A stretch of 64,000 bases of DNA from an uncultured Caulobacterales bacterium (GCA_964513675.1 CAZEOD010000005.1:11061-75060), one strand, 5' to 3'. Positions 44,586 to 63,386 are shown, counted from the first letter of the stretch. The notes: generated by a model not told the origin, from the letters alone. Made by a program: numbers and translations.

Positions 44586-44667
44586 AATCCCCGTGGCGCA
44601 AAAGCGCGGTTAAAAGAGAGACACATATTATTATTATTTTAAATCTCATATGTGACAGCTGCCAATC

Positions 44668-44681
44668 TGACAACGTTGTCA
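44668..44681. promoter_or_regulatory. Perfect 14-bp palindrome TGACAACGTTGTCA; predicted LacI-family operator upstream of the TBDR
   Basis: Read directly from the sequence. The central CG and the TG...CA arms are typical of LacI-family operators. Related copies sit at 50654 and 62799, with a half-site at 54529. Confidence 0.65.
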
Positions 44682-44900
44682 TATATAATGCAAAACTGAT
44701 TGTTTGAAGTCAATTCCAGAAATCACGATTAGTTTATTCTTTTTGACACTGTGTCTTAAGCGTCACAATCAAACGGGCTAATTTAAGCTTTAGAATAAAA
44801 ACCGGCCTTAATAATAGGTGAATTATCATCCAAGATGCAAAAATACCACCATTTTCCCTAGCAATCACGATTCTAGTCGTGCCTCTAAACTCGCTTGATT

Positions 44901-46412
44901 CTATATTTTTTCAGCCGCACAATGCGTTTTTATAAAGTCCGAATGATGCGGCATAACATCAACAGACTGCGCAACAACATCTTTGATGTAATCAACCCGC
45001 TTCTTAATCGTCTCAATCGGCGCCTTATCTGTCACAGCATTATACCCTTTGGGCGTGACGCCTTGGCCATACATAACCGCGAGCCAGCTTGCGGGGCTAA
45101 ACAAATCCGAATCGGCCTCAAATATGCGGCCCGCTTGTGAGAACTGTTCGATCTTGCGCGTCAAATGAACTGTTTGCGGCAAGGTCTGACAATGCCGCCA
45201 AAACGGCGTATCATCGCGCTGCGTAGCCGAATAATGCAAGACGAGAAAATCGCGAACACGCTCATATTCCAGCGCCGTTTTTTCATTAAAGGCATCGATA
45301 TCCGTTTGCGAAAAGCGTTTATCGGGATAATGAGCCATAAACCGCGCCAAGCTCGTTTGCACAAGATGAATACTTGTCGATTCGAGCGGCTCCATAAAGC
45401 CAGCCGCTAGGCCTAATGAGATCACATTTTTATCCCAGAACTTTTTCCGGCGCCCTGTGGTGAAGCGTAAGAATTTAGGATCTGACAAGGCTGGTCCGTC
45501 CAAATTATCCAGCAAGGTCGTAGCCGCTTCATCGTCACTGATAAATTCGCTGCAATAGACATGGCCATTCCCCGTTCTATGTTGAAGCGGAATACGCCAT
45601 TGCCAGCCCGCCTGACGTGCGGTGGCCTTGGTGTATGGTATGGGCTCCCCCACCTTCTCGCAGCCTACAGCAACTGCGCGGTTGGCCGGAAGCCATTCGC
45701 TCCAATCATGATAGCCCGCCTCAAGTGCGCCCTCGATTAACAGCCCGCGAAAGCCCGAGCAATCAACGAAAAAGTCAGCTGAAAGCGTCTGTCCGCTCTC
45801 AAGCTGTAGGGTTTTCACATGCCCCGTTTCATTATCCAGCCGCACATCGTCAATTCGGCCTTCAAGGCGCGTTACGCCCCGGCTTTCAGCAATACGGCGA
45901 AGAAAGGCCGCATAGCGCCCCGCGTCAAATTGAAACGCATAATTAATCCCTGACAAAGCTGATTGCGGACGGTCATTCAGCGGGCGCATGAATTTACCTT
46001 GCCGGCACGCTTGCACCATAAGTGAGTAATCAAACAAATCCCCCGCAAGGCCACGGCTATTCAAATTTGCCCAATATTGATAAAATGGCAAGACATCGAA
46101 ATCTATGCCAAAATCACCAAAGGGGTGAATATAGCTATGGCCGAGTTTATACCAATCCACAAATTCGATGCCGAGCTTAAAGGTCGCCTGCGTTTCGCGC
46201 ACAAACTCATCTTCATCAACACCCAACATTTGGTTGAACGCAATCAGCGGCGGAATGGTCGCTTCGCCAACGCCAACCGTTCCAATCTCTTCGGATTCAA
46301 CCAAAGTAATTTGCGTATTGGTTCCTTTCAGCAAAGTGCTCAGGGCCGCAGCCGCCATCCATCCCGTCGTGCCGCCGCCTACAATAATAAGGCTCTCTAT
46401 TTTATCTGTCAT
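44901..46412 (-). CDS. Flavin-dependent 'tryptophan halogenase'-family protein (paralog 4)
   Basis: GGGTTGW (GxGxxG), GVGEATIP, FKLGIEF Lys, GWQWRIP (WxWxIP) and FMEPLESTSIH. Confidence 0.85.
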   Translation of the reverse strand: MTDKIESLIIVGGGTTGWMAAAALSTLLKGTNTQITLVESEEIGTVGVGEATIPPLIAFNQMLGVDEDEFVRETQATFKLGIEFVDWYKLGHSYIHPFGDFGIDFDVLPFYQYWANLNSRGLAGDLFDYSLMVQACRQGKFMRPLNDRPQSALSGINYAFQFDAGRYAAFLRRIAESRGVTRLEGRIDDVRLDNETGHVKTLQLESGQTLSADFFVDCSGFRGLLIEGALEAGYHDWSEWLPANRAVAVGCEKVGEPIPYTKATARQAGWQWRIPLQHRTGNGHVYCSEFISDDEAATTLLDNLDGPALSDPKFLRFTTGRRKKFWDKNVISLGLAAGFMEPLESTSIHLVQTSLARFMAHYPDKRFSQTDIDAFNEKTALEYERVRDFLVLHYSATQRDDTPFWRHCQTLPQTVHLTRKIEQFSQAGRIFEADSDLFSPASWLAVMYGQGVTPKGYNAVTDKAPIETIKKRVDYIKDVVAQSVDVMPHHSDFIKTHCAAEKI

Positions 46413-46426
46413 ATTCGGCTCTTGAT

Positions 46427-47959
46427 CTACAGGTGAACAGCGTCAGCTTTGCAAAAGCGGTTCACAAAATCTATGTGGGGCGGCATCACTGTCACAGCTT
46501 TATCAATAACATCTCTCATGTTTTTTAGGCTCTTTGTGATATTATCATCCGTTAAGCCGTGAACGAGCGGGTTATAACCAGACGGCTCAAACCCTTGGCC
46601 AGCAGCTACAGCAAGCCAGCTTGTGACATCAAAAAGCTCGGCATCATATTTAAAGAATCGGCCGCTCCCTGTTAAAAGCTCCATCTTATGGGCCAAACTA
46701 TCCGGCAGTTCCATTTCGCGAACATAATCCCAAAGCGGGCTGTCATCCCGCCGAGTTGCAACATAATGCAGCATTAGGAAATCACGAATATGCTTAAAGT
46801 CATCATGAATAAGACGGTTATATTCGGATTGAACAGCCTCATTCATATCCCGGGATGGAAATAAGGCGACTAATTTTGAAATGCCGGACTGAATCATGTG
46901 AATACTTGTTGATTCAAGCGGCTCCATAAATCCGCCTGACAAGCCAATAGCCACACAATTTTTATTCCATAATTTTTTCCGCCGCCCCGTTACAAAGCGC
47001 AAATGTTTCGGCTCCTTTAAAAGCTCCCCCGTGAGACGCCCGCGAAAATCGGCCTCGGCTTGATCTTCCGATAAATAGTCACTGCAATAAACATAGCCGT
47101 TTCCATCCCGGTGCTGTAGCGGGATTTTCCACTGCCATCCTGCATCATAGGCGGTCGCTGTGGTGAAGGGCGGCGGAGGCTGCGTCCGTGATGTCGTGAC
47201 AGCAACGGCGCGGTCAACAGGTAAATATTTATGCCAGTTCTCATAACCGCTTTTCAGTGCGCCTTCGATTAAAACCCCGCGAAAGCCCGTGCAGTCAATG
47301 AAAAGGTCGGCGGCATATTCACGGCCATCTTTTAAACCAATCTTTTGAATAAATCCTGTCTCGGGATCGAGGTCAACTTTATCGACAATACCTTCTCGGC
47401 GGACAACACCGCGCGCTTCTGCGAAGCCGCGAAGAAATTTGGCATAAAGAACAGCGTCAAAATGAAACGCATAGGCAAGGCGGTTGATAACACTGCCGTG
47501 TTGCGGCTCGGGGCGAATGAATTTACCCGTATGAGCCGCCCGCGCATTTAGCGAGTAATCATCAAGCGGTGCTGTCCCGCCAATATCTTTATGCCGACGC
47601 CAAAAATGATGAAAGTCAATACCCTCTAAATCAAAGCCGTGAACGCCAAAGGGGTGAAAATAACTTTCGCCAATATGGCCCCAATTTTCAAACTCAATAC
47701 CAAGTTTATATGTGCCTTGCGTGGCCTTTAAAAATTCATATTCATCAATCCCGAGGGCCGCGTTGAATTTAGCAATTGCCGGAATTGTCGCCTCGCCTAC
47801 ACCAACAGTTTCAATCTGCTCTGATTCAATTAATGTGACGGATACATCTGTTTTATCAAGATATTTAGAGAGCGCTGCGGCGGACATCCACCCTGCCGTG
47901 CCCCCGCCGACAATCACAACATTACGGACGGGATTCGCCTTTTTCTGTGTCTCACGCAT
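46427..47959 (-). CDS. Flavin-dependent 'tryptophan halogenase'-family protein (paralog 3)
   Basis: GGGTAGW, GVGEATIP, YKLGIEF, GWQWKIP and FMEPLESTSIH. A TAATG overlap joins it to the upstream gene. Confidence 0.85.
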   Translation of the reverse strand: MRETQKKANPVRNVVIVGGGTAGWMSAAALSKYLDKTDVSVTLIESEQIETVGVGEATIPAIAKFNAALGIDEYEFLKATQGTYKLGIEFENWGHIGESYFHPFGVHGFDLEGIDFHHFWRRHKDIGGTAPLDDYSLNARAAHTGKFIRPEPQHGSVINRLAYAFHFDAVLYAKFLRGFAEARGVVRREGIVDKVDLDPETGFIQKIGLKDGREYAADLFIDCTGFRGVLIEGALKSGYENWHKYLPVDRAVAVTTSRTQPPPPFTTATAYDAGWQWKIPLQHRDGNGYVYCSDYLSEDQAEADFRGRLTGELLKEPKHLRFVTGRRKKLWNKNCVAIGLSGGFMEPLESTSIHMIQSGISKLVALFPSRDMNEAVQSEYNRLIHDDFKHIRDFLMLHYVATRRDDSPLWDYVREMELPDSLAHKMELLTGSGRFFKYDAELFDVTSWLAVAAGQGFEPSGYNPLVHGLTDDNITKSLKNMRDVIDKAVTVMPPHIDFVNRFCKADAVHL

Positions 47960-49077
47960 TACATATTTCCTTTCAACGCATTCATCTGCGCGTCAATTTT
48001 TTGGCTTATTTCAGCGAGCCAATGCTGAATATCACTTAGGCGCTCTCGGTCTGCCAATCTGTCATATCCAGCCTGATTAATTCCGCCTGCCCTTAAGGCA
48101 GACATCCATTCTGCTTTGGAAAATATATCATAATCCTCAAAGCTTAGACGCCCACGACTTCGAAATAGTTTAATTTTACGCGCCAAACGCACAGATATAT
48201 CTTCAGCCTTAAAGCCGGCGGAAATTAGCGACGCCATATCATTGATATGAGCCCCTTCTTCAGCCGCAAGGCGGTTATATTCGCGGCACTCGGCAGCGCC
48301 GTAGGATGTATCAGGCCAGAGCGAAAAAAGGCGCTCTATAGCTGACTGCACAACAAATAAAGTGACCCCAGAAAGCTGATTTAAACCCGCAGATTTAGTC
48401 TGCACAGCGACGTAATTCTCAGTCCATATACTCGCCCTCACATCGGCGCGCAAATCAATGATGAGATCAGAGTGAAGCGCATGGCCAGATAGCCTGATTT
48501 CACGCCGCATATTATCGGCAATAGACATATCTATATTATCGCCGCTGTGCAGAGTCAGCGGCGCAGCTGCCTGCGCAATATCGCCTAAAAGCGCTGTATA
48601 TTTAGCTGTATCAAACCGGTAAGCGGGATCAATAGACGGCAAATCTTTAGGCGCCGCACCAAGCGCAATTCCAGCGCTATTCAGCCGCAGCGCGAGGTTA
48701 TAATGCGCGATATCTTTCGCTTGCCCTGCGGTATAAGCGCGGTGCCAATAATGCTGAAAATCACAGCCAGACCGCGCACGCCCATAATCACCCAGCGGCG
48801 CATAGAACATGTCTCCACCGCGCGGAGTATATGGCAGGGCCATAATCATTTCAGCCCCCGCCTTGCGCCGAAGTTCGTCCTCGGTAATTTGCAAGAGCTG
48901 ATGGACATGACGAATATTGGGCCGCGAATAAACAAAGCCCGATACGTCCTCGCCGCTTTGAATAATATCCAGCTTACAGGCACCGCCCGGCAAACGCGCA
49001 CTCATCATAGCCGCGGCCAAACTACACAGCAAAGGCGCGCCAATAATCGTGATATGCCGGATAGGAGCCGCCATCAT
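47959..49077 (-). CDS. Degenerate halogenase-family paralog (372 aa) lacking the FAD and catalytic motifs
   Basis: Collinear similarity to its neighbours (ITIIGAPLLCSLAA vs IVIIGGGTAGWMSAA; YRFDTAKYTALL vs YQFDAIKYAPFL; YNRLAAEE vs YNRLMDLE). GxGxxG, GVGEAT, the Lys and WxWxIP are all absent. The frame is intact and coupled on both sides. Confidence 0.7.
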   Translation of the reverse strand: MMAAPIRHITIIGAPLLCSLAAAMMSARLPGGACKLDIIQSGEDVSGFVYSRPNIRHVHQLLQITEDELRRKAGAEMIMALPYTPRGGDMFYAPLGDYGRARSGCDFQHYWHRAYTAGQAKDIAHYNLALRLNSAGIALGAAPKDLPSIDPAYRFDTAKYTALLGDIAQAAAPLTLHSGDNIDMSIADNMRREIRLSGHALHSDLIIDLRADVRASIWTENYVAVQTKSAGLNQLSGVTLFVVQSAIERLFSLWPDTSYGAAECREYNRLAAEEGAHINDMASLISAGFKAEDISVRLARKIKLFRSRGRLSFEDYDIFSKAEWMSALRAGGINQAGYDRLADRERLSDIQHWLAEISQKIDAQMNALKGNM

Positions 49078-50615
49078 TATACAGCGCTTTGCGCCGCTTT
49101 ATCCAGATGCCGCATATTATGTTTATCAATATAAGCGGCGTGATCCGGCATTTGCGCCGCCGTTTGGGCCATAAGCTGCTTTAAGCCCTTCATATGATTC
49201 ATGATATTATCTTGCGGAATTAAATCAACGCGGCTGTCATAATTTTGCGGCGCAAATCTTTGCCCCATATAAACGGCCACCCAACTGGGTTCTAAAAACA
49301 ATCCAAAATCATATGTAGCAATCCGGCCACGGCGGCGGAACAGCTCCATTTTCTCGGCCAGACTATCTGGAACTTTTGAGGTTCGCATATAGTCCCAAAA
49401 CGGCGTATCATCGCGCTCAGTCGCGTGATAATGCAAAACCAGAAAATCCCGCACGCGCTCAAATTCAAGATCCATCAAGCGGTTATATTCATCGCGGTCA
49501 ATTTCAATGTCTTCATCACGCGGGAAAAGCTCAATAAGTTTGGTGATGCCTTCCTGAATGAGATAAATAGAGGTCGATTCTAGCGGCTCTAAAAACCCGC
49601 CCGATAGCCCTATCGCGACACAGTTTTTATGCCACAATTTTCGCCGCTTACCTGTTGTAAAGCGGAGCTTTCGCGGCGCGGATAAAGGCGCGCCTTCGAG
49701 GTTATCTAAAAGGGATTTTTCGGCTTCATCATCGGAGATAAAATCACTGGCATAAACATGGCCATTACCTGTTCTATGCTGCAAAGGAATACGCCAGCGC
49801 CACCCCGCTTTATCTGCCGTGGCCCGCGTGTAAGGCAGAAGCGGGCCTTCACTTTCACATGGCACAGCGACAGCGCGGTCAACAGGCAGCCATTTCGTCC
49901 ATTTATCATATCCCGTTTCCAAGGCTTTCTCAATTAAAAGACCGTAAAACCCTGTGCAATCAATGAAAAAGTCACCGGCTATTTCCTGCCCATCTTCGAG
50001 CCGAACCGATTGAATATCGCCCTTTTCAGCCGCAAGTTTAACATCAACAACTTTACCTTCAATCCGCGTCACGCCGCGCGCTTCGGCATGCGCCCGCAGA
50101 AAGGGCGCATATTTAATCGCGTCAAATTGATAGGCATAGCGATAGGTCGAATTTACAGAACGCGGATCATCCGACGGCGGCTGAAATTTACCTGCGCGGC
50201 AGGCCATAATCGGCAAGGAATAATCTTGTAAAGACCCAATGCCCGCTTGGGATTGCATCTTATTATAATAGTGATGAAAGGGCACGCCAGCATTGGCGAG
50301 GCCAAATTCACCAAAGGGATGAATATAACTATCCCCAAGGCGGCCCCAATCGACAAATTCAATACCAAGCTTAAAGGTGGCCGAGGTCGCCGCCATAAAC
50401 TCGGCCTCGTCAATTCCAATCGTTTCATTGAAAAACTTAATATGCGGCAAGGTTGCTTCGCCAACCCCAACAACACCAATGGCTTCGGACTCAATCAAGG
50501 TAATATCAAGGCCCAGCCCAGACATCATGCTCGACAATCCTGCGGCACTCATCCATCCGGCTGTCCCGCCGCCTATGATGACAATTTTTTTCAAGGCAAT
50601 TCCCGTTTGACTCAT
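49077..50615 (-). CDS. Flavin-dependent 'tryptophan halogenase'-family protein (paralog 1, first gene of the operon)
   Basis: GGGTAGW, GVGEATLP, FKLGIEF, GWRWRIP and FLEPLESTSIY. Confidence 0.85.
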   Translation of the reverse strand: MSQTGIALKKIVIIGGGTAGWMSAAGLSSMMSGLGLDITLIESEAIGVVGVGEATLPHIKFFNETIGIDEAEFMAATSATFKLGIEFVDWGRLGDSYIHPFGEFGLANAGVPFHHYYNKMQSQAGIGSLQDYSLPIMACRAGKFQPPSDDPRSVNSTYRYAYQFDAIKYAPFLRAHAEARGVTRIEGKVVDVKLAAEKGDIQSVRLEDGQEIAGDFFIDCTGFYGLLIEKALETGYDKWTKWLPVDRAVAVPCESEGPLLPYTRATADKAGWRWRIPLQHRTGNGHVYASDFISDDEAEKSLLDNLEGAPLSAPRKLRFTTGKRRKLWHKNCVAIGLSGGFLEPLESTSIYLIQEGITKLIELFPRDEDIEIDRDEYNRLMDLEFERVRDFLVLHYHATERDDTPFWDYMRTSKVPDSLAEKMELFRRRGRIATYDFGLFLEPSWVAVYMGQRFAPQNYDSRVDLIPQDNIMNHMKGLKQLMAQTAAQMPDHAAYIDKHNMRHLDKAAQSAV

Positions 50616-50653
50616 TCTTTACGAACGTTTTTCTTTGCAGTTAAGCGCAAGAC

Positions 50654-50667
50654 TGACAAGGTTGTCA
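50654..50667. promoter_or_regulatory. Operator variant TGACAAGGTTGTCA (13/14) in the divergent halogenase / DUF6445-like promoter region
   Basis: One central mismatch relative to the 44668 palindrome. It lies 39 nt upstream of the halogenase operon ATG. Confidence 0.55.
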
Positions 50668-50733
50668 ATCATATCATCTATGGATATATATGAGATAAAA
50701 ACGCGCACCCTAAACCGATATTTCAGGCCCCCT

Positions 50734-51423
50734 ATGCCCCCAGATTCTTTTTCATATCATATTGAACATTTCGGGGATGAAAAAGAGCCTGTTATTGTCA
50801 TGGATAATTTTAGCGGGAAGTTAGATTTACTTCTTCGCCATGCGCAATCACAAAAATTTTCGCCCGGCAGCGCCTATTATCCCGGCGTTCAAGCGCAGGC
50901 GGATGTCAATTATTTAACGCTACGCCGCAAAGAGCTTCCGCAAATCATGCGGGATGTTTTTGACATTCAGCACGGCCTTAACATCGAGAGCTGCGTTTAT
51001 GCGCTTGTCACGCGCCCCCCGGAGACACTCACGCCGGGGCAACGTCTACCCCATCATGACGGTAATGAGGGCAATCTTTTTGCGCTACTCCATTACATTC
51101 AAGGCGCAGAAGATGCAGGCACGGCCTTTTATCGTCACCGCCGCACAGGATTTGAAACCGTCACAGAAGAGCGCGCCGAAACTTACCGCGCTGCACTGAA
51201 GGAGGACGCTGCGGAATTTGGGATGCCGCCCGCGCAATATTTTTACGGTGATGACGCACGTTATGAAATGATTGGGGAGATTAAAGCCCGCCCAGACCGC
51301 GCGATTTTATATCGGGGGCGCACGCTACATTCTGGCTGTATTCCACTCGGCACCACCGAGGCGGCCTCAGTTGAAACGGCGCGCATTACGCTCAATACAT
51401 TTATTTGGGACACGGCGGCATGA
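50734..51423 (+). CDS. DUF6445-like protein with a possible Fe(II)/2OG-oxygenase-type HxD...H triad
   Basis: PVIVMDNF near the N-terminus, then LPHHDGN ... RTLHSG ... ARITLN. The start is uncertain (50635, 50680 or 50734). I chose 50734 because the operator lies inside the longer ORF. Confidence 0.55.
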   Translation: MPPDSFSYHIEHFGDEKEPVIVMDNFSGKLDLLLRHAQSQKFSPGSAYYPGVQAQADVNYLTLRRKELPQIMRDVFDIQHGLNIESCVYALVTRPPETLTPGQRLPHHDGNEGNLFALLHYIQGAEDAGTAFYRHRRTGFETVTEERAETYRAALKEDAAEFGMPPAQYFYGDDARYEMIGEIKARPDRAILYRGRTLHSGCIPLGTTEAASVETARITLNTFIWDTAA

Positions 51424-51917
51424 CCCCGCCCCGCTTAATTATTATTTGCGGGGTCTCGGCCTCTGGGAAATCAACAATCGGTAGCGCCCTCGCCGCCGCA
51501 TTATACTGCCCATTTTTGGAAGGGGATGATTACCACCCCCCTGCGAATATCGCGAAAATGGCGAGCGGAACACCGCTTACAGATCATGACCGCGCGGGTT
51601 GGATTGATATGATTTGCGGCGACGTCAACTCATCGCAAGAGCGCACGCTTGTCTTATCCTGCTCCGCACTGACTGATTTCGTCCAAAATAAACTTAAGAC
51701 TGATGTAGTGCGCGATATTATTTGGATAAAACTCATTTTGACGCGCCAAGAGGCCGAGCGGCGGATGAAAGCCCGCGATCATTTTATGCCGCCGGAGCTT
51801 ATGGATAGTCAGTTCGACGCCTGGAATCCGCCCAAAGACGGGCTAGAGATTATAGCGACACAAGAAAAAGCCGCGATCATATCTCAGATCACGGCTTATA
51901 TTTCGCAGTTAGATTAA
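51420..51917 (+). CDS. gntK: Gluconokinase (SKI-family gluconate kinase)
   Basis: P-loop GVSASGKSTIG followed by FLEGDDYHP, typical of GntK. An ATGA overlap joins it to the preceding gene. Confidence 0.8.
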   Translation: MTPPRLIIICGVSASGKSTIGSALAAALYCPFLEGDDYHPPANIAKMASGTPLTDHDRAGWIDMICGDVNSSQERTLVLSCSALTDFVQNKLKTDVVRDIIWIKLILTRQEAERRMKARDHFMPPELMDSQFDAWNPPKDGLEIIATQEKAAIISQITAYISQLD

Positions 51918-51921
51918 CGCC

Positions 51922-54474: not shown

Positions 54475-54528
54475 TTTCCCTTATGGACTGCCAAATTATG
54501 GTTTTGGCTTTAAGTTTTCATCAAAAAT

Positions 54529-54542
54529 TGACAACGTAAGAC
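54529..54542. promoter_or_regulatory. Degenerate operator TGACAACGTAAGAC (one good half-site) between GH3 and the lactonase operon
   Basis: TGACAACGT matches 9 nt of the consensus and the second arm is poor. It lies 55 nt from the GH3 start and 77 nt from the lactonase start. Confidence 0.35.
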
Positions 54543-54618
54543 AATTAATTCTATAAAAACAAAAAAAGAGCAAGTAAAATCTTGCTCACAGCTAATAACA
54601 GCTATCGGGGATATTGAC

Positions 54619-55629
54619 ATGATTAATCGACGCCACGTCTTAGCCGGGGCCGCCCTTGCGCTGCCATCTTGTCACAAATCGCCGGCCAGCACAGCCGCTA
54701 CGAATCCAGCGCTTGAGGCTTTCTCTCCGCGGTTTTTCGATTTCATCGGAAAAAGCGCGTCCCTAGAGGTTCTAGGCTCTGGTTATGGCTGGTCAGAAGG
54801 CCCGGCATGGGACAAAGCCCGCGGCCAACTTTACTTCACAGACGTTCCCGGAAACACGGCTTATGTTTGGAAAGAGGGCCAAGGCGTTGAGGTATTTCTC
54901 TCTCCGTCTGGCGCCATCGTTGAAGGCTTTCGCGAACCCGGAGCAAATGGACTATTTTACAGCCGCAACGGCCAGTTGATTCTGTGTAATCATGGCAAAC
55001 GCGGCATCGAATCTCTTAATATTGACAGCAAAGCCCGTACCCTTCTGACAATGAGCTATAAAAATAAAGCTTACAACTCACCGAATGATGTCGTTGAGGC
55101 CAGCACGGGTGATCTTTATTTTACCGACCCGCCTTATGGCCTTGAAGGGCTAGACGATTCGCCCCTTAAAGAGCAGGCGCATAACGGCGTTTATCACCTC
55201 AGCAAAAGCGGCGCTGTTAAGCTGATGATCGCAGATTTAACATTTCCCAACGGCGTGGCCTTATCGCCTGATGAACGCTGGCTCTATGTCGCGCAATCAG
55301 ATCCTAAAGCGATGCATATTTACAGACTAGACCTCACAGACCCCAAGGCTGAAAAAGAGCTATTGGTTGATCTTGCGCCTTTTTCAGGGCCAGACCTACC
55401 GGGACTGCCGGACGGCATGGTTATTGACCAAAAAGGCTATCTTTTCGCAACAGGCCCCGGCGGCGTGTTTGTTATCTCGCCAAAGGGTGATGTCTTAGGC
55501 CGCATTAAAACCGGCAAAGGCAGCGCGAATTGTACCTTTGGAGAAGACGGCTCAACATTATTTATTACCAATCATGACCGGCTCGTAAAAATCCCGACTC
55601 TAACGCGGGGCCTCGCATGGGGATCATAA
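54619..55629 (+). CDS. SMP-30/gluconolactonase/LRE family protein, exported
   Basis: GGGGA SD and an N-terminal RRHVLAGAALALPSC (Tat-like lipoprotein signal). Six-bladed propeller motifs are present (EGPAWD, PNDVV, PDGMVID). Confidence 0.85.
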   Translation: MINRRHVLAGAALALPSCHKSPASTAATNPALEAFSPRFFDFIGKSASLEVLGSGYGWSEGPAWDKARGQLYFTDVPGNTAYVWKEGQGVEVFLSPSGAIVEGFREPGANGLFYSRNGQLILCNHGKRGIESLNIDSKARTLLTMSYKNKAYNSPNDVVEASTGDLYFTDPPYGLEGLDDSPLKEQAHNGVYHLSKSGAVKLMIADLTFPNGVALSPDERWLYVAQSDPKAMHIYRLDLTDPKAEKELLVDLAPFSGPDLPGLPDGMVIDQKGYLFATGPGGVFVISPKGDVLGRIKTGKGSANCTFGEDGSTLFITNHDRLVKIPTLTRGLAWGS

Positions 55630-56984
55630 TTGAGTACAGAGCCATATGGGCTACGCTTATAAGCCTCGTTTTATTGCTAGCCTTAATATTACGTTTTAAA
55701 TCCAATGCCTTTATCACGCTGTTGGGCTGCGCCATTTTAGCAGCCCTCTTGGCAGGAATGGATCCTGAAACCGCCTTTAAGACGGTGCAAAACGGCATGG
55801 GCGGAACGCTCGGATTTATTGCCGCCGTTATAGGCCTTGGCGCAATCTTCGGCGCAATAATGGAGCAAAGCGGCGCCATACTCGTCTTGGCAGCCCGCGT
55901 TGATAGCGTCAAAGGGGACGGCCCCAAATCTATGGCCGCAGGCCTCATGGGCTTAATCGCCGCAATCCCGGTGTTTTTTGATGTCGCTTTAATTATTCTT
56001 TTGCCGTTTATCATGAAGCTTGCACAAAAAGCGGGGAAAAAGCCCCTCTTCTTTGGCCTCCCGCTTTGCGCAGGCCTCGCCATTGGTCACGCCTTTATTC
56101 CGCCGACCCCCGGCCCTATCGCGATTGCAGAGTTAATCGGCGCTAATCTCGGCCATGTGATTCTTATGGGCAGTTTGATTAGTGTGATTTGTTTAATTAT
56201 TTCTGGGCCTATTTTGACGGTTTGGCTTGATAATACGGGGCGGCTTCCCGGCATTGTGCAAGGGCCCGCCAAGGCCGGCTTTGCCGCCGAGGTCAGTGAC
56301 ATCGCCGCGAAACCGATATCATTTACGCTTGCCTTGATTGTGATGCTATTGCCAATAATCCTGATTATGGCCGCGACGATTGGTGATTTAACCCTAGCAG
56401 ATAGTCCGTTTAAGACGGGATTGGCCATTATAGGTCACCCTTTCACAGCTTTGATTATCGCCTGCCTCGCAAGTTGGGTTTTGCTTAAACCCAAAACGGA
56501 GACTGAACGGAGCGCGATGCGCGAAACATTATCGCGCGCCTTTGAACCCACCGCCGCCGTTATACTTGTTACAGGCGCAGGCGGGGCCTTTAAACAAGTC
56601 CTTGTTGATACTGGCGCAGGTAAAGATATTGCGCAATATTTCATCAATGCTGGATTAACGCCCGTCTTGCTCGCCTTTGCAATGGCGCTTTTACTTCGTG
56701 TCGTACAGGGCAGCGCAACAGTTGCCATGATTACGGCCGCAGGATTAATTGCGCCGCTTATTAGCGTCATAGCCCCGAACCCGTGGCAACTCGCCGTGCT
56801 GACAACCGCGATTGCCGCCGGCGCAACAGGCTTCTCACATGTCAATGATTCAGGGTTTTGGCTCGTTGGCCGCCTCTTCAAACTGACAGAAGCCGAGACT
56901 CTCAAAAGCTGGACATTATTAACAGGTGTGATTTCCTTAACTGGCCTTTTAGTCTGTTTCTGCCTATATGGCGCCTTAGGATAA
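55617..56984 (+). CDS. GntP-family gluconate:H+ symporter
   Basis: 455-aa polytopic protein with GntP-type stretches (PPTPGP, VNDSGFW). Confidence 0.85.
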   Translation: MGIIIEYRAIWATLISLVLLLALILRFKSNAFITLLGCAILAALLAGMDPETAFKTVQNGMGGTLGFIAAVIGLGAIFGAIMEQSGAILVLAARVDSVKGDGPKSMAAGLMGLIAAIPVFFDVALIILLPFIMKLAQKAGKKPLFFGLPLCAGLAIGHAFIPPTPGPIAIAELIGANLGHVILMGSLISVICLIISGPILTVWLDNTGRLPGIVQGPAKAGFAAEVSDIAAKPISFTLALIVMLLPIILIMAATIGDLTLADSPFKTGLAIIGHPFTALIIACLASWVLLKPKTETERSAMRETLSRAFEPTAAVILVTGAGGAFKQVLVDTGAGKDIAQYFINAGLTPVLLAFAMALLLRVVQGSATVAMITAAGLIAPLISVIAPNPWQLAVLTTAIAAGATGFSHVNDSGFWLVGRLFKLTEAETLKSWTLLTGVISLTGLLVCFCLYGALG

Positions 56985-56986
56985 AT

Positions 56987-58375
56987 ATGCGCCAAAGGGG
57001 CCAGCCATTAGAGAGGGGGAAATCATTGAATAAGCTTCAAAAGCTATTCGGCTACGGCATTGGTGATTTTGGCCTCAATATTTATTGGAAGACCATATCG
57101 CTCTATCTTGTCTATTGGTACACAACGATTGTTGGCCTTGATCCGCGTATTGCCGGAACTTTATTTTTCATTGGTATGACATGGGATGCGATTTCTGATC
57201 CTATCATCGCCTCTCTATCTGAGCGCGTGACATCACGTTTCGGAACCTATCGGCCCTTTTTGCTCTACGGCTCTGTTGCGCTCGGCTTTGCTTTTGTTCT
57301 GCAATTTTGGGTGCCGCCCTTCACAGGCCCGCGGCTTATTTTATATCTTATCATCGCCTGTGTTATATTTCGCAGCGCTTATACCATTGTCGCGATTCCC
57401 TATGCGGCCATGGCATCGCGCTTGACCTATGACAGTATTGAGCGTGCCGATTATTCAGGCGCGCGCATGTTTTGTGCCTTTTTAGGCCTCTTGCTAATTT
57501 CGATGTTTTTACCGCCTCTCGTCGAGGTTTTCACCACCCGAACAGGCTCCGAACAAAAAGCCTTTCAATATGCCGCTGCCATTGGCGCGATTGTGGCAAG
57601 CTTGGCTATATTACTCTGTTTTGCCATGACGAAAGAGCAGCCTCTTCCGCCGCAAACGGTTCGATCAAAAAAAGTATGGTCGGGAATTACGGAAAATATT
57701 CGCACCAATCGCTCTTTGCGAATTTTAATTTGCCTCATTATTTTAAATACAGTTGCGGGGGCCAGCCTTAGCCTCACCCTCGTATTTTTCATTGATGCGA
57801 ACCAAGCTAAATTTGCCTCCAAAGAAGCCGTCTTAACCGCCTATGCGATTGGCACATTAATATTTGTACCGATCTGGACTTTCTGTGTGCACCGCTATGG
57901 CCGCAAGAAAATATGGACAATAATTGTATTAATTTACATTGCTGTTGCGCTTCATATGCTAGTGTTTTCATCTGTAACAATCAGCGGCATACCCATTCAA
58001 ATTATAATTTTCGGCGCCTGCGGCGGAGGCTTAGCTATGATTTTATGGGCGTTTATTCCCGACTGCGTCGAATTTGGACAAATTGATAGCGGTTACAGAT
58101 CCGAAGCCGGCGTGTTTGGATCTGTGATGGTCACGCAGAAATTATCAGGCGCTTTAACGGGATTATTAGTCGGATTTATGCTTGCCGCCTTTGGCGTCTC
58201 ACAGGCGAGCGACGGCTTTATTGTGAGTTCAGAAAAAATGACGCTTTTTCTCGCGATTGTTCCAGCCCTTTTATTAGCGCTCTCCCTTATTCCGGTGTTC
58301 CAATTACCATTGGAACGCGCCGCCCATTCAGATATTATAGATAAACTCCAAAACAAGGACGTCACACATGGTTAA
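56987..58375 (+). CDS. GPH-family (MelB-like) glycoside/oligosaccharide:cation symporter
   Basis: N-terminal FGYGIGDFGLNIYW and DAISDP motifs, with about 12 TM. The ATG at 56987 lies 2 nt after the gntP stop, so the ORF-track N-terminal extension is rejected. Confidence 0.8.
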   Translation: MRQRGQPLERGKSLNKLQKLFGYGIGDFGLNIYWKTISLYLVYWYTTIVGLDPRIAGTLFFIGMTWDAISDPIIASLSERVTSRFGTYRPFLLYGSVALGFAFVLQFWVPPFTGPRLILYLIIACVIFRSAYTIVAIPYAAMASRLTYDSIERADYSGARMFCAFLGLLLISMFLPPLVEVFTTRTGSEQKAFQYAAAIGAIVASLAILLCFAMTKEQPLPPQTVRSKKVWSGITENIRTNRSLRILICLIILNTVAGASLSLTLVFFIDANQAKFASKEAVLTAYAIGTLIFVPIWTFCVHRYGRKKIWTIIVLIYIAVALHMLVFSSVTISGIPIQIIIFGACGGGLAMILWAFIPDCVEFGQIDSGYRSEAGVFGSVMVTQKLSGALTGLLVGFMLAAFGVSQASDGFIVSSEKMTLFLAIVPALLLALSLIPVFQLPLERAAHSDIIDKLQNKDVTHG

Positions 58376-59402
58376 AATGGTTGATGTTGCAGAACACGCA
58401 GGCGTTTCAGTGAAAACAGTCTCCCGTGTTTTAAACAATGAAGCACATGTGCAAGATAAAGTTAGAAAACGTGTCTTTGAGTCGGTTGAAACATTGGGTT
58501 ATGTCCCCAGTGCCTCGGCGCGAAATCTGCGAAGCCGCCGAACCTATGGACTGCACTTTATTACCCACTCGACGCGAAGTAACTTCTTAAACGCCATTCA
58601 ATCCGGCGCTTTAATGGCGAGTCAAAAACGGGGCTATAGTTTGTTCTGGAATTATCTCGACCCCAATATTACAAAAGATCCCGCCAAGTTGAAAAACTGG
58701 TGTGATAGATTGATTAAAGACAGCCGGCCCGACGGCATTATCTTGACGCCGCCCTATACTAATTATGAAACGGTCAATGCCTGTTTAAATGCACATAAAG
58801 TGCCGATTGTCCGCATTGGGCCGAATAAAATCATGGATGATAATATCACCGTGAAGATTGATGACCGTCTGGCTGCACGCGATGCAACACAGCATCTTAT
58901 CGACCTTGGCCATGAGCGTATTGCCTTCATCCGCGGCGTTGAGAACCAACACGCGACACATGAACGCTATAAGGGGTATTGCGATGCGCTGGAACGAGCT
59001 GGAATTTCGAACGATGACAGCCTTGTTTTTCCGGGCACTTTCAACTTTGCCAGCGGGATGACCGCCGGCGAGAAAATTGTAAATATGGAAAACCGCCCGA
59101 CCGCTGTTTTTGCCGCAAATGACGATATGGCGGCCGGCGTTATTGTTGCCGCGCATAAAAATAATATCAAAATTCCCGAGGAAATTTCAATTATTGGCTT
59201 TGATGATTCTGAAATGGCAGAACGTATTTGGCCGGCTTTAACAACAATTCGCCAGCCGCGCGTTGAATATGGCGAACGGTCTACTGAAATATTGATTTCA
59301 ATGGCGGGATCAACTGGGCGAGGCCGAGCCGCCTCAAAGGCGACCGAGCTCATGGATTATGACTTAATCCTACGTGATTCCACTTCGGCGATTAAAAAGT
59401 AA
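58368..59402 (+). CDS. LacI-family transcriptional regulator
   Basis: N-terminal HTH MVDVAEHAGVSVKTVSRVLNN and a periplasmic-binding-protein-like effector domain. It overlaps the GPH gene end by 8 nt. Confidence 0.92.
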   Translation: MVKMVDVAEHAGVSVKTVSRVLNNEAHVQDKVRKRVFESVETLGYVPSASARNLRSRRTYGLHFITHSTRSNFLNAIQSGALMASQKRGYSLFWNYLDPNITKDPAKLKNWCDRLIKDSRPDGIILTPPYTNYETVNACLNAHKVPIVRIGPNKIMDDNITVKIDDRLAARDATQHLIDLGHERIAFIRGVENQHATHERYKGYCDALERAGISNDDSLVFPGTFNFASGMTAGEKIVNMENRPTAVFAANDDMAAGVIVAAHKNNIKIPEEISIIGFDDSEMAERIWPALTTIRQPRVEYGERSTEILISMAGSTGRGRAASKATELMDYDLILRDSTSAIKK

Positions 59403-59436
59403 ATATGAAAGCCCAAACAGGGCCAGTGATAACAGG

Positions 59437-60330
59437 CTAGAAACGCATCGCTTTCACGGCCTCATAGCTTGTCGAAACCGCATTTAAAAATGGCTTTTGC
59501 GGGCTATCATGCTCTGCAATGAAATATTCCATTCCAGAGATGTCATTCAGCGCAAAATAGCTTTCAAACGGGATAATACCTTCGCCAACATTGACCATAA
59601 GATCTTTGGTGATGCGGCCATAATCAGCGCCTTTGAAATCCGCGCGGCTTGGGTTCATGTCTTTAATGTGGCAAAGCTTAAAGCGGCCAGGATATTGCCG
59701 GAAGAGCGCTGGAATATCGACATCGACAAGATAAGCCCAAAACATATCAAGCTCCATCACAAGGTTTTCAGGCGCGCAATCACCCATAATAATATCCATA
59801 GCGATTGTTCCATCGCCCAGATCTTCAAACTCAAACTGATGATTGTGATAAGCGAGCTGAATACCGCTATCTCTAAGCTGCGCGCCGGCTGTGTTCATTA
59901 AGGCCGCATGTGATTTCCAATCCGCATAGCTGCGCTGGTCATCCGCAATATAAGGCACAACCGCATATTTACAGCCGAGCGTTTCGCATGTTTTTACAAG
60001 CCCATTGAGATCACCGCGAAGGTTATCAAGGGAAATATGCGTGATCGGGGCTGGCAGGGCGACCTCATCAAGCATCGCCCGAAGATCTGCCGGCGCGGTG
60101 TTAGCAAAATTACGGCCATTCAGCTCAACATAATCATAACCCGCCGCCTTGATAAGCTTAAGAGTTCCCATCGGATCAGGCTCAAATATTTCGCGCAAGG
60201 TATAGGTTTGCAAGCCAACTTTTGAAATCTGGCGGGCCTCGGGTTTTAAAGCCGCAGGGGCCTTACAGCCAACCGTAACGAGCGCCGAACTTGCCGCTGC
60301 ATTTTGCAGAAAAGATCGTCTTGAAAACAT
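59437..60330 (-). CDS. Exported xylose-isomerase-like TIM-barrel protein (sugar phosphate isomerase/epimerase family)
   Basis: Twin-arginine signal SRRSFLQNAAASSALVTVGC with a lipobox, and an AP-endonuclease-2/XylA-like TIM barrel length. A TAATG overlap joins it to the GMC gene. Confidence 0.75.
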   Translation of the reverse strand: MFSRRSFLQNAAASSALVTVGCKAPAALKPEARQISKVGLQTYTLREIFEPDPMGTLKLIKAAGYDYVELNGRNFANTAPADLRAMLDEVALPAPITHISLDNLRGDLNGLVKTCETLGCKYAVVPYIADDQRSYADWKSHAALMNTAGAQLRDSGIQLAYHNHQFEFEDLGDGTIAMDIIMGDCAPENLVMELDMFWAYLVDVDIPALFRQYPGRFKLCHIKDMNPSRADFKGADYGRITKDLMVNVGEGIIPFESYFALNDISGMEYFIAEHDSPQKPFLNAVSTSYEAVKAMRF

Positions 60331-62030
60331 TATAGAACTCCTTGCTCTAAGAGGTCAGCCGCGTGATTAGCCGCGCGCGCCGAGAACGCCATATAAGTTA
60401 GAGATGGATTTTGGCAGCCCGCAGAGGTCATGAAAGACCCATCGGAAATAAACAGGTTCGGAACATCCCAGCTTTGATTAAATTTATTCAAAACAGAGGT
60501 TGCAGGGTCATGGCCCATACGCGCCGTGCCCATTTCATGAATCCCGTTACCCGGCACGCCAATGATTGGATTCTCAGGATCATCTGCATGCTCAATTTCA
60601 ATGCCTGCAGCCGTCATCATATCAATCGCATCGCGCGTGGCTTGCTGCATAAGCTTTTGCTCATTATTACGCATTTTCGCATCCAAGATCGGGACAGGAA
60701 AGCCCCATTTATCTGTTCTGGTAGGGTGGAGACGAATTTGATTACGAAAATCAGGTAAAATCTCAGCAAAGGCCGTAATGGAAAAATACCAGGGGCCGGG
60801 CGTTCTATTTCCGGCTTTAAAAGCTTTGCCGATACCGGCGTTATTTTTAGATGATTCCCACCCTAAGCGGTAAATACGGCCCTGATATCCAAAGCCGCGG
60901 CTATAACCAGGGCCCTCTTCTAAATGGTTTCGATATCGCGGGATGTAAAATCCATTCGGGCGGCGGCCATAATGATATTTATCTTCCATGCCCGGCATAA
61001 TGCCGCGCGCCCGTGCACCCGAAATATGATCCATAAGATTATGCGCTAATTGACCAGAGGAATTAGCAAGCCCGTTTGGAAAGGCCGCATTTGCCGAGTT
61101 TTTAAGAATAATCGTCGACGGAATTGTTCCCGCATTAAGGAACACAATTTTAGCCGTATATGTCTTGGCCTCACCGGTTTTTATATTCACTGTTTTAACG
61201 CCGGATATCCGTTTTTTACCCGCATCATAATCCAATTTAAGAACGGCTGTGTCCGGTATCAATGTCAGATTGCCCGTGCGCTCCGCCGCTGGAAGCGTTG
61301 CCGCGACTGAGCTGAAATAAGCCCCAAAAATACAGCCTCTATGGCACAGATTACGCGATTGGCACTGTCCGCGCCCTAATTCTAATTGTTCTTCCGTGGG
61401 CTGTGTCAGATTGGCGACACGCCCGGGAATAACTTTGCGAGTCGGGAAAGCGGCTTCGACTTTTTCTTTAAAAACCTCTTCCGCACATGTCAGATCATGC
61501 GGCGGCTGAAAAACACCATCGGGCAGAATATCCAGCCCCTCTTGAGAGCCAGAAATACCCGCAAAGCGCTCAACATGGTCATACCACGGCGCGAGGTCTT
61601 TATAGCGGACGGGCCAATCAATCCCGATATTTTCTTTTTTGTTAGCCGCAAAATCAATCTCGGACAAACGATAGCTTTGACGCGCCCACATCAAGGATCG
61701 TCCGCCTTTGTGATAGCCGCGCCGCCATAAATAATCTTGACCTTCGGGCACTTCATATGGGTTTTCATTATCATCGACCCAAAACTGTTTCGAACCTTGG
61801 TCAAAGGCGTAAACAGTCGATTGAATCGGATGGTTTTTCAAATCTTCCGCTGTCTTACGGCCTAGATTTTGCATATCCCACGGGTCAATATGATCGCCGT
61901 AATCCTCGGCAGGGTCTATGTCACGGCCGCGCTCAAGCACAGCTACTTTCAAACCGCGCTCTGTCAGCTCTTTCGCGACCCATCCACCGGACATGCCGGA
62001 CCCAACAATGATTGCATCAAAATCAGCCAT
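60330..62030 (-). CDS. GMC-family FAD oxidoreductase (gluconate 2-dehydrogenase flavoprotein-like), no signal peptide of its own
   Basis: DAIIVGSGMSGG Rossmann motif and a C-terminal GMC motif IHEMGTARMG. The ATG at 62030 lies 2 nt after the small-subunit stop; a GTG at 62045 is the alternative. Confidence 0.85.
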   Translation of the reverse strand: MADFDAIIVGSGMSGGWVAKELTERGLKVAVLERGRDIDPAEDYGDHIDPWDMQNLGRKTAEDLKNHPIQSTVYAFDQGSKQFWVDDNENPYEVPEGQDYLWRRGYHKGGRSLMWARQSYRLSEIDFAANKKENIGIDWPVRYKDLAPWYDHVERFAGISGSQEGLDILPDGVFQPPHDLTCAEEVFKEKVEAAFPTRKVIPGRVANLTQPTEEQLELGRGQCQSRNLCHRGCIFGAYFSSVAATLPAAERTGNLTLIPDTAVLKLDYDAGKKRISGVKTVNIKTGEAKTYTAKIVFLNAGTIPSTIILKNSANAAFPNGLANSSGQLAHNLMDHISGARARGIMPGMEDKYHYGRRPNGFYIPRYRNHLEEGPGYSRGFGYQGRIYRLGWESSKNNAGIGKAFKAGNRTPGPWYFSITAFAEILPDFRNQIRLHPTRTDKWGFPVPILDAKMRNNEQKLMQQATRDAIDMMTAAGIEIEHADDPENPIIGVPGNGIHEMGTARMGHDPATSVLNKFNQSWDVPNLFISDGSFMTSAGCQNPSLTYMAFSARAANHAADLLEQGVL

Positions 62031-62032
62031 AT

Positions 62033-62611
62033 CTATGTCGCCCACGTCCGTCCAATTTCAGTCAAATCCACACAGCCTTTCCAATCACCGGGGACAGGCT
62101 CATATCGAAGCTCCTCCGATGCGCCCGGCTCTGACATATAATAGGCCGTCGCGACTGTCGATTTCATATCGGTGTAAAACCCGTCTTTTGTCTTTCCGCT
62201 AAAAACATCAAGATCATATGCGGCTAAAATATCATGCTGCTCTGCGCTATTTTGCTCAGCAAATACGCCGCCTGATTTCGCATCTAATTTTGCAGCAAGC
62301 GCGTTTAATCCTTTGCGCCAATAGCCCTTATAATTATCATCGCCCCACTCAGAAACCAGGCTAGCAATTACGGCGGGCACTCCGGCCTCAACCGCGCCGG
62401 CGGTCTCTGTTTGCGGAATAATCGTTTCAGCAACGGCACTCAGAAAAGCAAATTCGCTGGCCGTGAAAAATGCGGCGCTGCTCGCGTCAATAGCGGGTAA
62501 ATCTTTAGCGCCAGTCTCGCGGCTCGCCTTGCATGACGATAGCGCGCCCACCGCAGAAATAGCCAAGAGCGCTTTAATCGCCTCTCGCTTTGTAACATGT
62601 GCCTTACGCAT
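62033..62611 (-). CDS. Gluconate 2-dehydrogenase subunit-3-family small subunit with an export signal
   Basis: 192 aa. The N-terminal KREAIKALLAISAVGALSSC is a Tat-like lipoprotein signal. It is the first gene of the three-gene operon. Confidence 0.7.
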   Translation of the reverse strand: MRKAHVTKREAIKALLAISAVGALSSCKASRETGAKDLPAIDASSAAFFTASEFAFLSAVAETIIPQTETAGAVEAGVPAVIASLVSEWGDDNYKGYWRKGLNALAAKLDAKSGGVFAEQNSAEQHDILAAYDLDVFSGKTKDGFYTDMKSTVATAYYMSEPGASEELRYEPVPGDWKGCVDLTEIGRTWAT

Positions 62612-62658
62612 AGATATTACACTCCTTTGACCCGGTTCATATATAGTGTCGTTTGCTA

Positions 62659-62692
62659 GGCATAATGCCTATAGCTATCTGGCATAATGCCT
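62659..62692. repeat. Two exact copies of GGCATAATGCCT spaced 22 bp centre-to-centre
   Basis: Copies at 62659-62670 and 62681-62692. Each is itself near-palindromic (GGCAT-AA-TGCC). They lie 48-80 nt upstream of the small-subunit start. Confidence 0.5.
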
Positions 62693-62798
62693 GCGATACG
62701 CAAGGCCACCAAAGGCATTTACACGCCTATGAAACGAAAACTCTATGAACGGATATTCCCAAAATACTTTTATAGTTATCTAATTTACATAGCTGAAT

Positions 62799-62812
62799 TG
62801 ACATCGTTGTCA
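62799..62812. promoter_or_regulatory. Operator variant TGACATCGTTGTCA (13/14) between the GMC operon and the cupin gene
   Basis: One mismatch relative to the 44668 palindrome. It lies 50 nt upstream of the cupin ATG. Confidence 0.55.
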
Positions 62813-62861: not shown

Positions 62862-63344
62862 ATGTATAGACATAAGATGCAAAGATATAAGTTTAAAATA
62901 TCCTGCCTTATATTCGCAGCCTTTGCTATGGCCCTTTCTGCGTGCGAAGGTCATCACGATCATGCCGCACCGCAAGAGGACGCCGCTTTAACGTCTGGTC
63001 AATTAAAGACGGGCGTTGTTTCGGAGCAAACCGCGAAAACAAGCGTAGAATCGTGGGGTAAGTTTTTGAGTTATTATGAAGGCCGCTCTGACCATGTTTC
63101 GGATATTTTAACAGGCGTCGCCGTGATTAATCCCGGCGAAGAAATTCATCCGCCGCATAAACATCCCGAAGAAGAATTTCTAATGGTTATAGAGGGCAGC
63201 GGAACATGGAGCATAAAGGGTATTAATAGCCCCGCCTTAGCCGGTGATATTTTATTTGCCGTGCCGGGTGAACTCCACGGGCTTAAAAATACAGGCAATA
63301 CCCCATTGAAATTTGTTGTGTTTAAATATAACCCAAAACCTTAA
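62862..63344 (+). CDS. Exported cupin-domain protein
   Basis: Lipoprotein-type signal (AMALSAC) and cupin motifs GEEIHPPHKHPEEEF ... LHGLKNTG. Confidence 0.75.
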   Translation: MYRHKMQRYKFKISCLIFAAFAMALSACEGHHDHAAPQEDAALTSGQLKTGVVSEQTAKTSVESWGKFLSYYEGRSDHVSDILTGVAVINPGEEIHPPHKHPEEEFLMVIEGSGTWSIKGINSPALAGDILFAVPGELHGLKNTGNTPLKFVVFKYNPKP

Positions 63345-63386
63345 TAATAAGCCGGCAAAAAAAATCGGCACTACAGGGAGAACTTC

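Follow-up and report, generated by a model that had tools for sequence, protein, structure and literature searches.

The window, by which we mean the whole stretch of 64,000 nucleotides (nt) from an uncultured Caulobacterales bacterium (GCA_964513675.1 CAZEOD010000005.1:11061-75060), carries between 41 and 64 kb a gene for a LacI-family protein and, in the intergenic DNA on either side of it, copies of the 14-bp palindrome TGACAACGTTGTCA. We propose that this palindrome is the operator of the LacI repressor encoded at 58368 to 59402 and that the locus forms a single regulon, a reading to which we assign a probability of roughly 85% from the comparison of sequences. An earlier note on this DNA had predicted such a regulon, and we describe here what became of that prediction.

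Genes and palindromic sites of the locus

The locus begins on the minus strand with the gene for a TonB-dependent receptor (TBDR) of the Xanthomonas/Caulobacter subfamily (41334 to 44585; TIGR01782, E = 5.7e-181) and an operon of four genes for tryptophan halogenase-like flavoproteins (44901 to 50615, minus strand; PF04820), which overlap or are separated by short gaps. Divergent from this operon is the plus-strand pair DUF6445-gntK (50734 to 51917; PF20043 and TIGR01313), with the start of the DUF6445 gene set by alignment with the related locus L001. A minus-strand gene for a GH3 beta-glucosidase with a lipoprotein signal (51922 to 54474; BglX and exo-1,3/1,6-glucosidase models) diverges from plus-strand genes that profile matches identify as an SGL gluconolactonase, a GntP gluconate permease, and a GPH/MFS_2 symporter (54619 to 58375). 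The lacI gene follows directly (58368 to 59402, plus strand; 344 amino acids) and is the last gene of this SGL-gntP-GPH-lacI operon, its start overlapping the GPH end by 8 nt. Profile and structure matches assign the minus-strand operon at 59437 to 62611 to a Gluconate_2-dh3 small subunit (G2DH3), a GMC flavoprotein dehydrogenase, and a xylose-isomerase-like TIM barrel protein. The plus-strand unit at 62862 to 64000 comprises, again by profile matches, a cupin gene (62862 to 63344) and the start of a gene for an SSF sodium:solute symporter (from about 63387). A PfkB kinase gene comes after the SSF gene, beyond the window end (L085), and the regulon probably extends past that end to include both.

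All gene identities given in the earlier note were confirmed, and LacI is, as it had claimed, the sole regulator, since no other open reading frame of at least 150 amino acids between 41 and 64 kb encodes a DNA-binding domain. Its label of an "island" did not hold, because the GC content of the region is the same as that of the flanks. Horizontal acquisition of an island is likewise not supported, as GC content runs at 46 to 51% across the whole window and the flanks consist of housekeeping genes.

The three palindromic copies, which we call type A sites, were found exactly where the earlier note had placed them. Operator 1 is the exact palindrome (44668 to 44681) and precedes the TBDR start codon (44585) by 82 nt. 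Operator 2 (TGACAAGGTTGTCA, 50654 to 50667, one mismatch) occupies the divergent region between the halogenase operon and DUF6445-gntK, with gaps of 38 nt to the first halogenase-like gene (ATG at 50615) and 66 nt to the DUF6445 gene (ATG at 50734). Operator 3 (TGACATCGTTGTCA, 62799 to 62812, one mismatch), which reads as the 16-bp palindrome TTGACATCGTTGTCAA, stands between the G2DH3-GMC-TIM operon (ATG at 62611; 187 nt) and the cupin gene (ATG at 62862; 49 nt). A related but asymmetric element of 17 bp, the type B site (TTGACAACGTAAGACAA, 54528 to 54544, plus strand), is found 53 nt from the divergent GH3 start and 74 nt from the SGL start. Together the four sites occupy exactly the four intergenic regions that divide the seven transcription units, and their gaps to the start codons agree with the location of LacI operators. 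Sites of the LacI family are even palindromes with a central CG, they lie mostly 30 to 140 bp upstream of gene starts, and 72% of the regulators are autoregulated (PMC4052901). The TG...CG...CA architecture that the earlier note had recognized belongs to an even palindrome (16- to 22-bp class) with a central CG upstream of start codons and matches this description.

At up to one mismatch, TGACAACGTTGTCA occurs three times in the 64 kb, where 0.01 copies are expected from dinucleotide shuffles and 0.0105 from base composition (Poisson P ~2e-7 for three copies). All three are intergenic and within the 41- to 64-kb locus, and the 64-kb window contains no copy at up to two mismatches outside 44 to 63 kb. 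At up to three mismatches there is no significant excess (four observed versus 1.34 expected; 7 of 100 shuffles reach four), and the signal is carried by the near-perfect copies only. A weight matrix trained on 77 sites, all from other loci and none from the window, gave its three top window scores to the three type A sites, namely operator 3 (23.7 bits), operator 1 (20.8 bits), and operator 2 (18.2 bits), with the next match at 12.7 bits. This fourth-ranked match (AGCGACAGCGCGGTCAAC, 49866 to 49883) is located inside the first halogenase-like gene and is probably a chance occurrence.

We rejected the reading of the palindromes as hairpins or terminators, because the 14 bp yield a stem of at most 5 bp, no T-run is present, and no terminator is called there. 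An Rfam scan of 40 to 64 kb returned no RNA family; hence, the long intergenic regions are not accounted for by known riboswitches or small RNAs. A literature search for the exact 14-mers yielded only an unrelated paper on a synthetic MtlR box.

The intergenic regions contain further repeated elements. Between operator 3 and the G2DH3 start, the near-palindrome GGCATAATGCCT occurs at 62659 to 62670 and, 22 bp on, at 62681 to 62692; it is also found at 60994 to 61004 inside the GMC gene. The intergenic pair lies in a segment of more than 100 nt that is missing from the syntenic region of L001 and may represent a small insertion or an additional site for binding. The 315-nt spacer between the halogenase operon and the TBDR gene (44586 to 44900), in which an Rfam search found no match, holds two pairs of direct repeats about 142 to 147 nt apart, one of them being AGAAATCACGATT / AGCAATCACGATT.

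The palindrome in related loci and the LacI protein

Our comparison set consisted of 84 loci (1.146 Mb) for which the sole selection criterion was that they encode a homologue of the window LacI; near-duplicates among the metagenomic loci make the locus counts given here larger than the number of independent lineages. The consensus TGACAnCGnTGTCA, counted at up to one mismatch over its 12 fixed positions, gave 100 matches where 1.73 are expected, spread over 56 of the 84 loci. The matches lie upstream of GH3 genes (26 loci), TBDR genes (12), the lacI homologue (12), and halogenase-like genes (10), often within 50 to 300 bp of the lacI gene itself, and the TBDR gene in L091 is also preceded by the motif. 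The sequences of L001 and L096, the closest relatives, stop inside the halogenase genes, and the comparison with them extends up to that point. The occurrence of the motif with LacI homologues over dozens of loci, in front of the same gene families, supports the predicted single regulon.

The geometry of the motif is strict. TGACA-N4-TGTCA is present 90 times in the 84 loci, while each of the other spacings from N0 to N9 is found zero to two times, and a separate class of palindromes with one additional base in the spacer (TGACA-N5-TGTCA) was sought across the related loci and not found. The central CG is present in 98% of the 77 matrix sites. The presence of the motif also follows the recognition helix of the LacI homologue: loci with the helix VS[I/M/P/V]KTVSRV mostly have the motif nearby, and it is absent from all seven loci with VSAKTVSRV and all three with VSMMTVSRV. 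In a clade with a LacI about 40% identical to that of the window (L009, L012, L021, L024, L035, L045, L051, and L064), tandem TGACAGCGCTGTCA pairs, 21 to 24 bp apart, precede the halogenase-like genes, and a single site precedes GH3.

The nearest genome loci by LacI identity belong to metagenome-assembled genomes of an uncultured Caulobacterales bacterium (77%, fully syntenic), a Hellea (70%), and a Maricaulaceae member (57%). The intergenic DNA of L001 and L002 is only about 66 to 75% identical to that of the window or cannot be aligned (a large indel is present in L001), and the sites stand out there as blocks of identity. Moreover, the imperfect variants are specific to their site and retained across genomes with LacI proteins 57 to 77% identical. 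In the window, L001, L096, and L003, the halogenase/DUF6445 region retains TGACAAGGTTGTCA with its central GG, and in the window, L001, L096, L089, L090, L091, and L095, TGACATCGTTGTCA stands between the dehydrogenase operon and the cupin gene. By this comparison, the type A sites qualify as phylogenetic footprints in diverged intergenic DNA. The co-occurrence of motif and LacI, the correlation with the recognition helix, and the footprints lend good comparative-genomic support to the single LacI regulon predicted in the earlier note, including the autoregulation that it had proposed.

The window LacI has a helix-turn-helix domain (PF00356, residues 4 to 48, E = 9.8e-17, 60.9 bits versus a cutoff of 27) and a periplasmic-binding-protein-like effector domain (PF13377, E = 3.9e-35; PF00532, E = 4.5e-22). 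It matches the solved structures of CcpA, RbsR, PurR, and LacI over the full length, the best relatives being CcpA, RbsR, and PurR. The hinge reads PSASARNLRS and has its L54 in register with L54 of PurR, a candidate for the leucine that inserts at the central CpG. The protein has no C-terminal tetramerization helix, and its 344 amino acids end with a C terminus like those of PurR and CcpA. Orthologues with 50 to 78% identity are found in Hellea-, Henriciella-, and Maricaulis-type bacteria.

How does this protein relate to known regulons? The closest counterparts are the regulators of the predicted RegPrecise regulons GluR and BglR1 to BglR3 (Caulobacterales) and BglR (Sphingomonadales), which are likewise alphaproteobacterial LacI-family local regulators (PMC4052901). 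With the sequences from the supplement of PMC4052901, the window LacI is 37.6% identical to GluR CC2053, 36.8% to BglR3 CC2316, 34.0% to BglR2 CC0969, 33.8% to BglR1, and 32.3% to Saro_1609, and no orthologue was found among these RegPrecise proteins. Because identity is only about 32 to 38%, the window LacI appears as a separate, new orthologous group within a known, GluR/BglR-like kind of regulon. The recognition helix is nearly identical (GVSIKTVSRV), and the GluR/BglR regulons, which we compared by regulator and target genes, also have palindromic operators, beta-glucoside and glucose catabolic targets including GH3 enzymes and TonB receptors, and an autoregulated regulator gene in or next to the target operon. 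To such targets, the predicted regulon of the window adds the genes for a gluconolactonase, the permease GntP, and the kinase GntK, a periplasmic GMC dehydrogenase operon, and the four halogenase-like genes.

Predicted regulation and alternative explanations

The earlier note had listed a half-site match at 54529 to 54542 as a weak copy of the palindrome. Its left half, TGACAACG, is indeed perfect, and 9 of 14 positions match overall; however, the element is not a weak degenerate copy but a conserved asymmetric variant of 17 bp, the type B site, which is canonical in its left half but not in its right half and exceeds the 16-bp palindrome by 1 base. A decayed palindrome is ruled out, since the non-palindromic right half is itself conserved. 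The type B sequence is exact in L096, L002, L005, and L094 and has one to three mismatches in L001, L090, L091, L092 (Henriciella sp. AS95), and L095 and in second copies in L005 and L094, which lie just past lacI and ahead of the halogenase-like genes. Overall, it is present in at least 10 genomes of 46 to 62% GC with LacI proteins 54 to 77% identical to that of the window. It is always oriented with the downstream operon (plus strand), and the operon that it heads always ends in lacI. In L093 (Maricaulis sp. W15), L006, and L008, a type A palindrome takes its place, and L005 and L094 have the full gene set and type B sites only. A single type B copy (L005, 11064) restores GTCAA, at N7 spacing. 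We infer that the type B site is bound by the same LacI and serves as an asymmetric operator within the promoter of the repressor's own operon. Such a conserved asymmetric operator would be a small natural case of affinity tuning inside one regulon. Ahead of the SGL start, the leader that follows the type B site also contains a GC-rich hairpin, GAGCAAG-N6-CTTGCTC (54568 to 54587), flanked by A/T runs; it is called terminator-like on the minus strand, and its left arm alone is conserved in L001.

We hypothesize that a LacI dimer binds TTGACAnCGnTGTCAA, with each helix-turn-helix reading one TGACA half and the hinge helices (ASARNLRS) sitting at the central CpG. Operator 1 would control the TBDR gene, operator 2 the four halogenase-like genes and the divergent DUF6445-gntK operon, the type B site GH3 and the divergent SGL-gntP-GPH-lacI operon, hence autoregulation, and operator 3 the G2DH3-GMC-TIM operon and the divergent cupin-SSF-PfkB genes. 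Bound LacI would exclude RNA polymerase, because the sites overlap the -35 or spacer region or the +1 position of sigma-70-like promoters, and would be released by a sugar effector, for which a beta-glucoside or disaccharide, glucose, and gluconate/gluconolactone are candidates. Operator 2 overlaps TTGTCA-17-TATATA facing DUF6445, the counterpart of which in L001 is TTGTCA-17-TATAGA. Operator 3 overlaps TTGTCA-18-TATATT and has TTGACA on both strands, possible -35 boxes of crossing divergent promoters. In the low-GC genomes, the type B site reads as a near-consensus promoter, TTGACA-18-TATAAA in the window, L001, and L096, TTGACA-18-TATAAT in L090, and TTGACA-18-TAGAAT in L002. Binding, repression, promoter positions, and effector identity are predictions from sequence. 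Escherichia coli LacI is a dimeric helix-turn-helix protein with a hinge helix that reads a CG-centered inverted repeat at a promoter-overlapping operator and is released by sugar. In comparison, the window protein lacks the tetramerization helix, so a dimer at each site and no looping between distant operators are expected, and seven transcription units are predicted instead of one. The resulting map for an uncultured Hellea-like marine bacterium, with one repressor, four control regions, and seven transcription units, is testable.

Several points weigh against this reading. In this genome, the motif scan covered the window and 10 kb past its end, which limits what it can say about a genome-wide restriction of the motif to the locus. 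The center of operator 2 is GG and not the canonical CG. The promoters are consensus matches only, which are frequent in AT-rich intergenic DNA (49 versus 27.7 in shuffles), and operator 1 fits two alternatives, as it lies either across the +1 of TTGACT-17-CATTAT or just upstream of the -35 box of TTGGCA-18-TAAAAT. The type B site is outside the top 25 matches of the palindrome matrix, and its right half is conserved as AAGACAA, which is not a LacI half-site and could be bound by a different protein. In addition, the promoter-like element TTGGAA-17-TATTAT (58310 to 58338, in the 3' end of the GPH gene and 30 nt before the lacI start) could provide basal lacI expression without the type B site or the operon promoter.

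The coverage of 74 kb of this genome, together with the presence of other conserved or repeated elements in these regions (the type B site and the GGCATAATGCCT pair), would be compatible with another regulator encoded elsewhere, e.g., a global carbon regulator, that binds the palindromes while the neighboring LacI uses another operator. We regard this as highly improbable: the loci were picked by LacI homology alone, yet the motif appears in 56 of the 84, often close to lacI, its presence follows the recognition-helix sequence, and its even symmetry, central CG, and rigid N4 spacing are the signature of the LacI family. An explanation that does without any repressor treats the TTGACA palindromes as -35 boxes that are paired between divergent sigma-70 promoters and conserved for promoter function. 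TTGACA matches the -35 consensus, operator 3 offers it on either strand, and the type B site has a -10-like hexamer 18 nt on in the window, L001, L096, L090, and L002. We give this very little credence, as the region of operator 1 is not divergent and its palindrome ends in CTGACA/ATGACA, conservation of the central CG and of positions 6 and 9 exceeds the requirements of a -35 box, and the tandem 14-mers before halogenase-like genes in other clades would be senseless as -35 boxes. L005 and L094, which have a higher GC content, even keep the 17-mer without a -10 box at 17 to 18 nt.

Rather unlikely, in our view, is that the three palindromes alone are LacI operators and the type B site either binds a second factor or is an element specific to its promoter, in which case GH3 and the lacI operon would not be directly controlled by LacI and there would be no autoregulation. 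The right half GACAA indeed turns the type B site into a direct repeat, GACAA-N5-GACAA, instead of an inverted repeat, which is consistent with this proposal, as are the low matrix rank of the site and the possible internal promoter before lacI. However, the left 10 nt are a perfect operator consensus including CG-T, a type A site stands at the type B position in L093, L006, and L008, type B sites are the only ones in L005 and L094, where the regulon gene set is complete, and no second regulator is conserved in these loci. A precedent also exists in lac O1 of E. coli, an asymmetric natural operator in which one half-site is weaker and the center holds an additional base pair.

Halogenase-like genes and oxidative branch

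In carbohydrate loci of Xanthomonas, Caulobacter, and Alteromonadales, a TIGR01782 TBDR is accompanied by a LacI-type repressor, inner-membrane sugar transporters, and a periplasmic glycoside hydrolase, and "tryptophan halogenase" paralogues frequently adjoin the TBDR. The present locus differs from such TonB-receptor loci in that its set of genes includes an oxidative branch leading to gluconate and that an explicit shared operator links its units. Iyer et al. (2010, PMC2938197) described a conserved neighborhood of a TonB receptor, one to three tryptophan halogenases, a JmjC/2-oxoglutarate dioxygenase, and SapC, for which they predicted a halogenated siderophore-like product. As in their neighborhood (PMC2938197), genes for halogenase-like proteins that retain the Rossmann motif and WxWxIP adjoin a TBDR gene in the window; in contrast to it, the window and at least 10 related loci place these genes behind the operator of a sugar regulator, together with GH3. 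A search of the literature for halogenase genes with a TBDR in a LacI, glucosidase, or polysaccharide utilization context yielded nothing useful besides that paper (PMC2938197).

The position of the operator before the halogenase-like genes, together with GH3, suggests a carbohydrate context, and the many independent loci suggest that these genes are under a predicted sugar-type regulator. Of the hints available, this operator, present before them in the window and at least 10 other loci, points most directly to a response of these widespread genes to a sugar signal. We tentatively extend this idea, which may well turn out to be wrong, to halogenase-like flavoproteins and DUF6445/JmjC proteins as members of sugar-induced beta-glucoside or beta-glucan LacI regulons in many Proteobacteria, where, instead of making a halogenated siderophore-like metabolite, they would help to capture or process glycans at the TonB receptor. 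The LacI clade of the window would, in addition, use the conserved asymmetric 17-bp operator at its own operon for a repression level that differs from that of the palindromic sites.

The third "halogenase" of the operon (47959 to 49077; 372 amino acids) is a short degenerate paralogue with a PF04820 match in its N-terminal half only. Its GxGxxG motif is lost (ITIIGAPLLC) and it has no WxWxIP, whereas the other three keep GGGTxGW and GW[Q/R]W[R/K]IP; a similar short halogenase-like gene is retained in relatives. A Cupin_8/JmjC-like gene, absent from the window, follows the DUF6445 gene in L002 (3658 to 4680) and L089 (6135 to 7157) and fits the neighborhood described in PMC2938197.

The regulon map joins uptake across the outer membrane and periplasmic hydrolysis by GH3 to an oxidative branch made up of the GMC dehydrogenase, the lactonase, gluconate uptake, and phosphorylation. 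This branch looks largely periplasmic, with Tat-like and/or lipobox signals in the TIM barrel protein, the lactonase, the small subunit, the cupin, and GH3. The GMC subunit has no export signal; its closest relatives are the large subunits of FAD-dependent fructose and glucose dehydrogenases, which are exported with a small subunit (7w2j, 6a2u). The TIM barrel protein is closest to the "sugar phosphate isomerase" entries 8tcd and 8tcs. These features suggest periplasmic oxidation of glucose or glucosides, which would feed the lactonase, GntP, and GntK. In L089, L090, L091, and L095, the last with its dehydrogenase operon partly outside the fetched range, the G2DH3-GMC-TIM operon is extended by genes for an MFS transporter, a second TIM barrel protein, and a GFO_IDH_MocA oxidoreductase, all absent from the window, and the TGACATCGTTGTCA operator of these extended operons sits upstream of the GFO gene.

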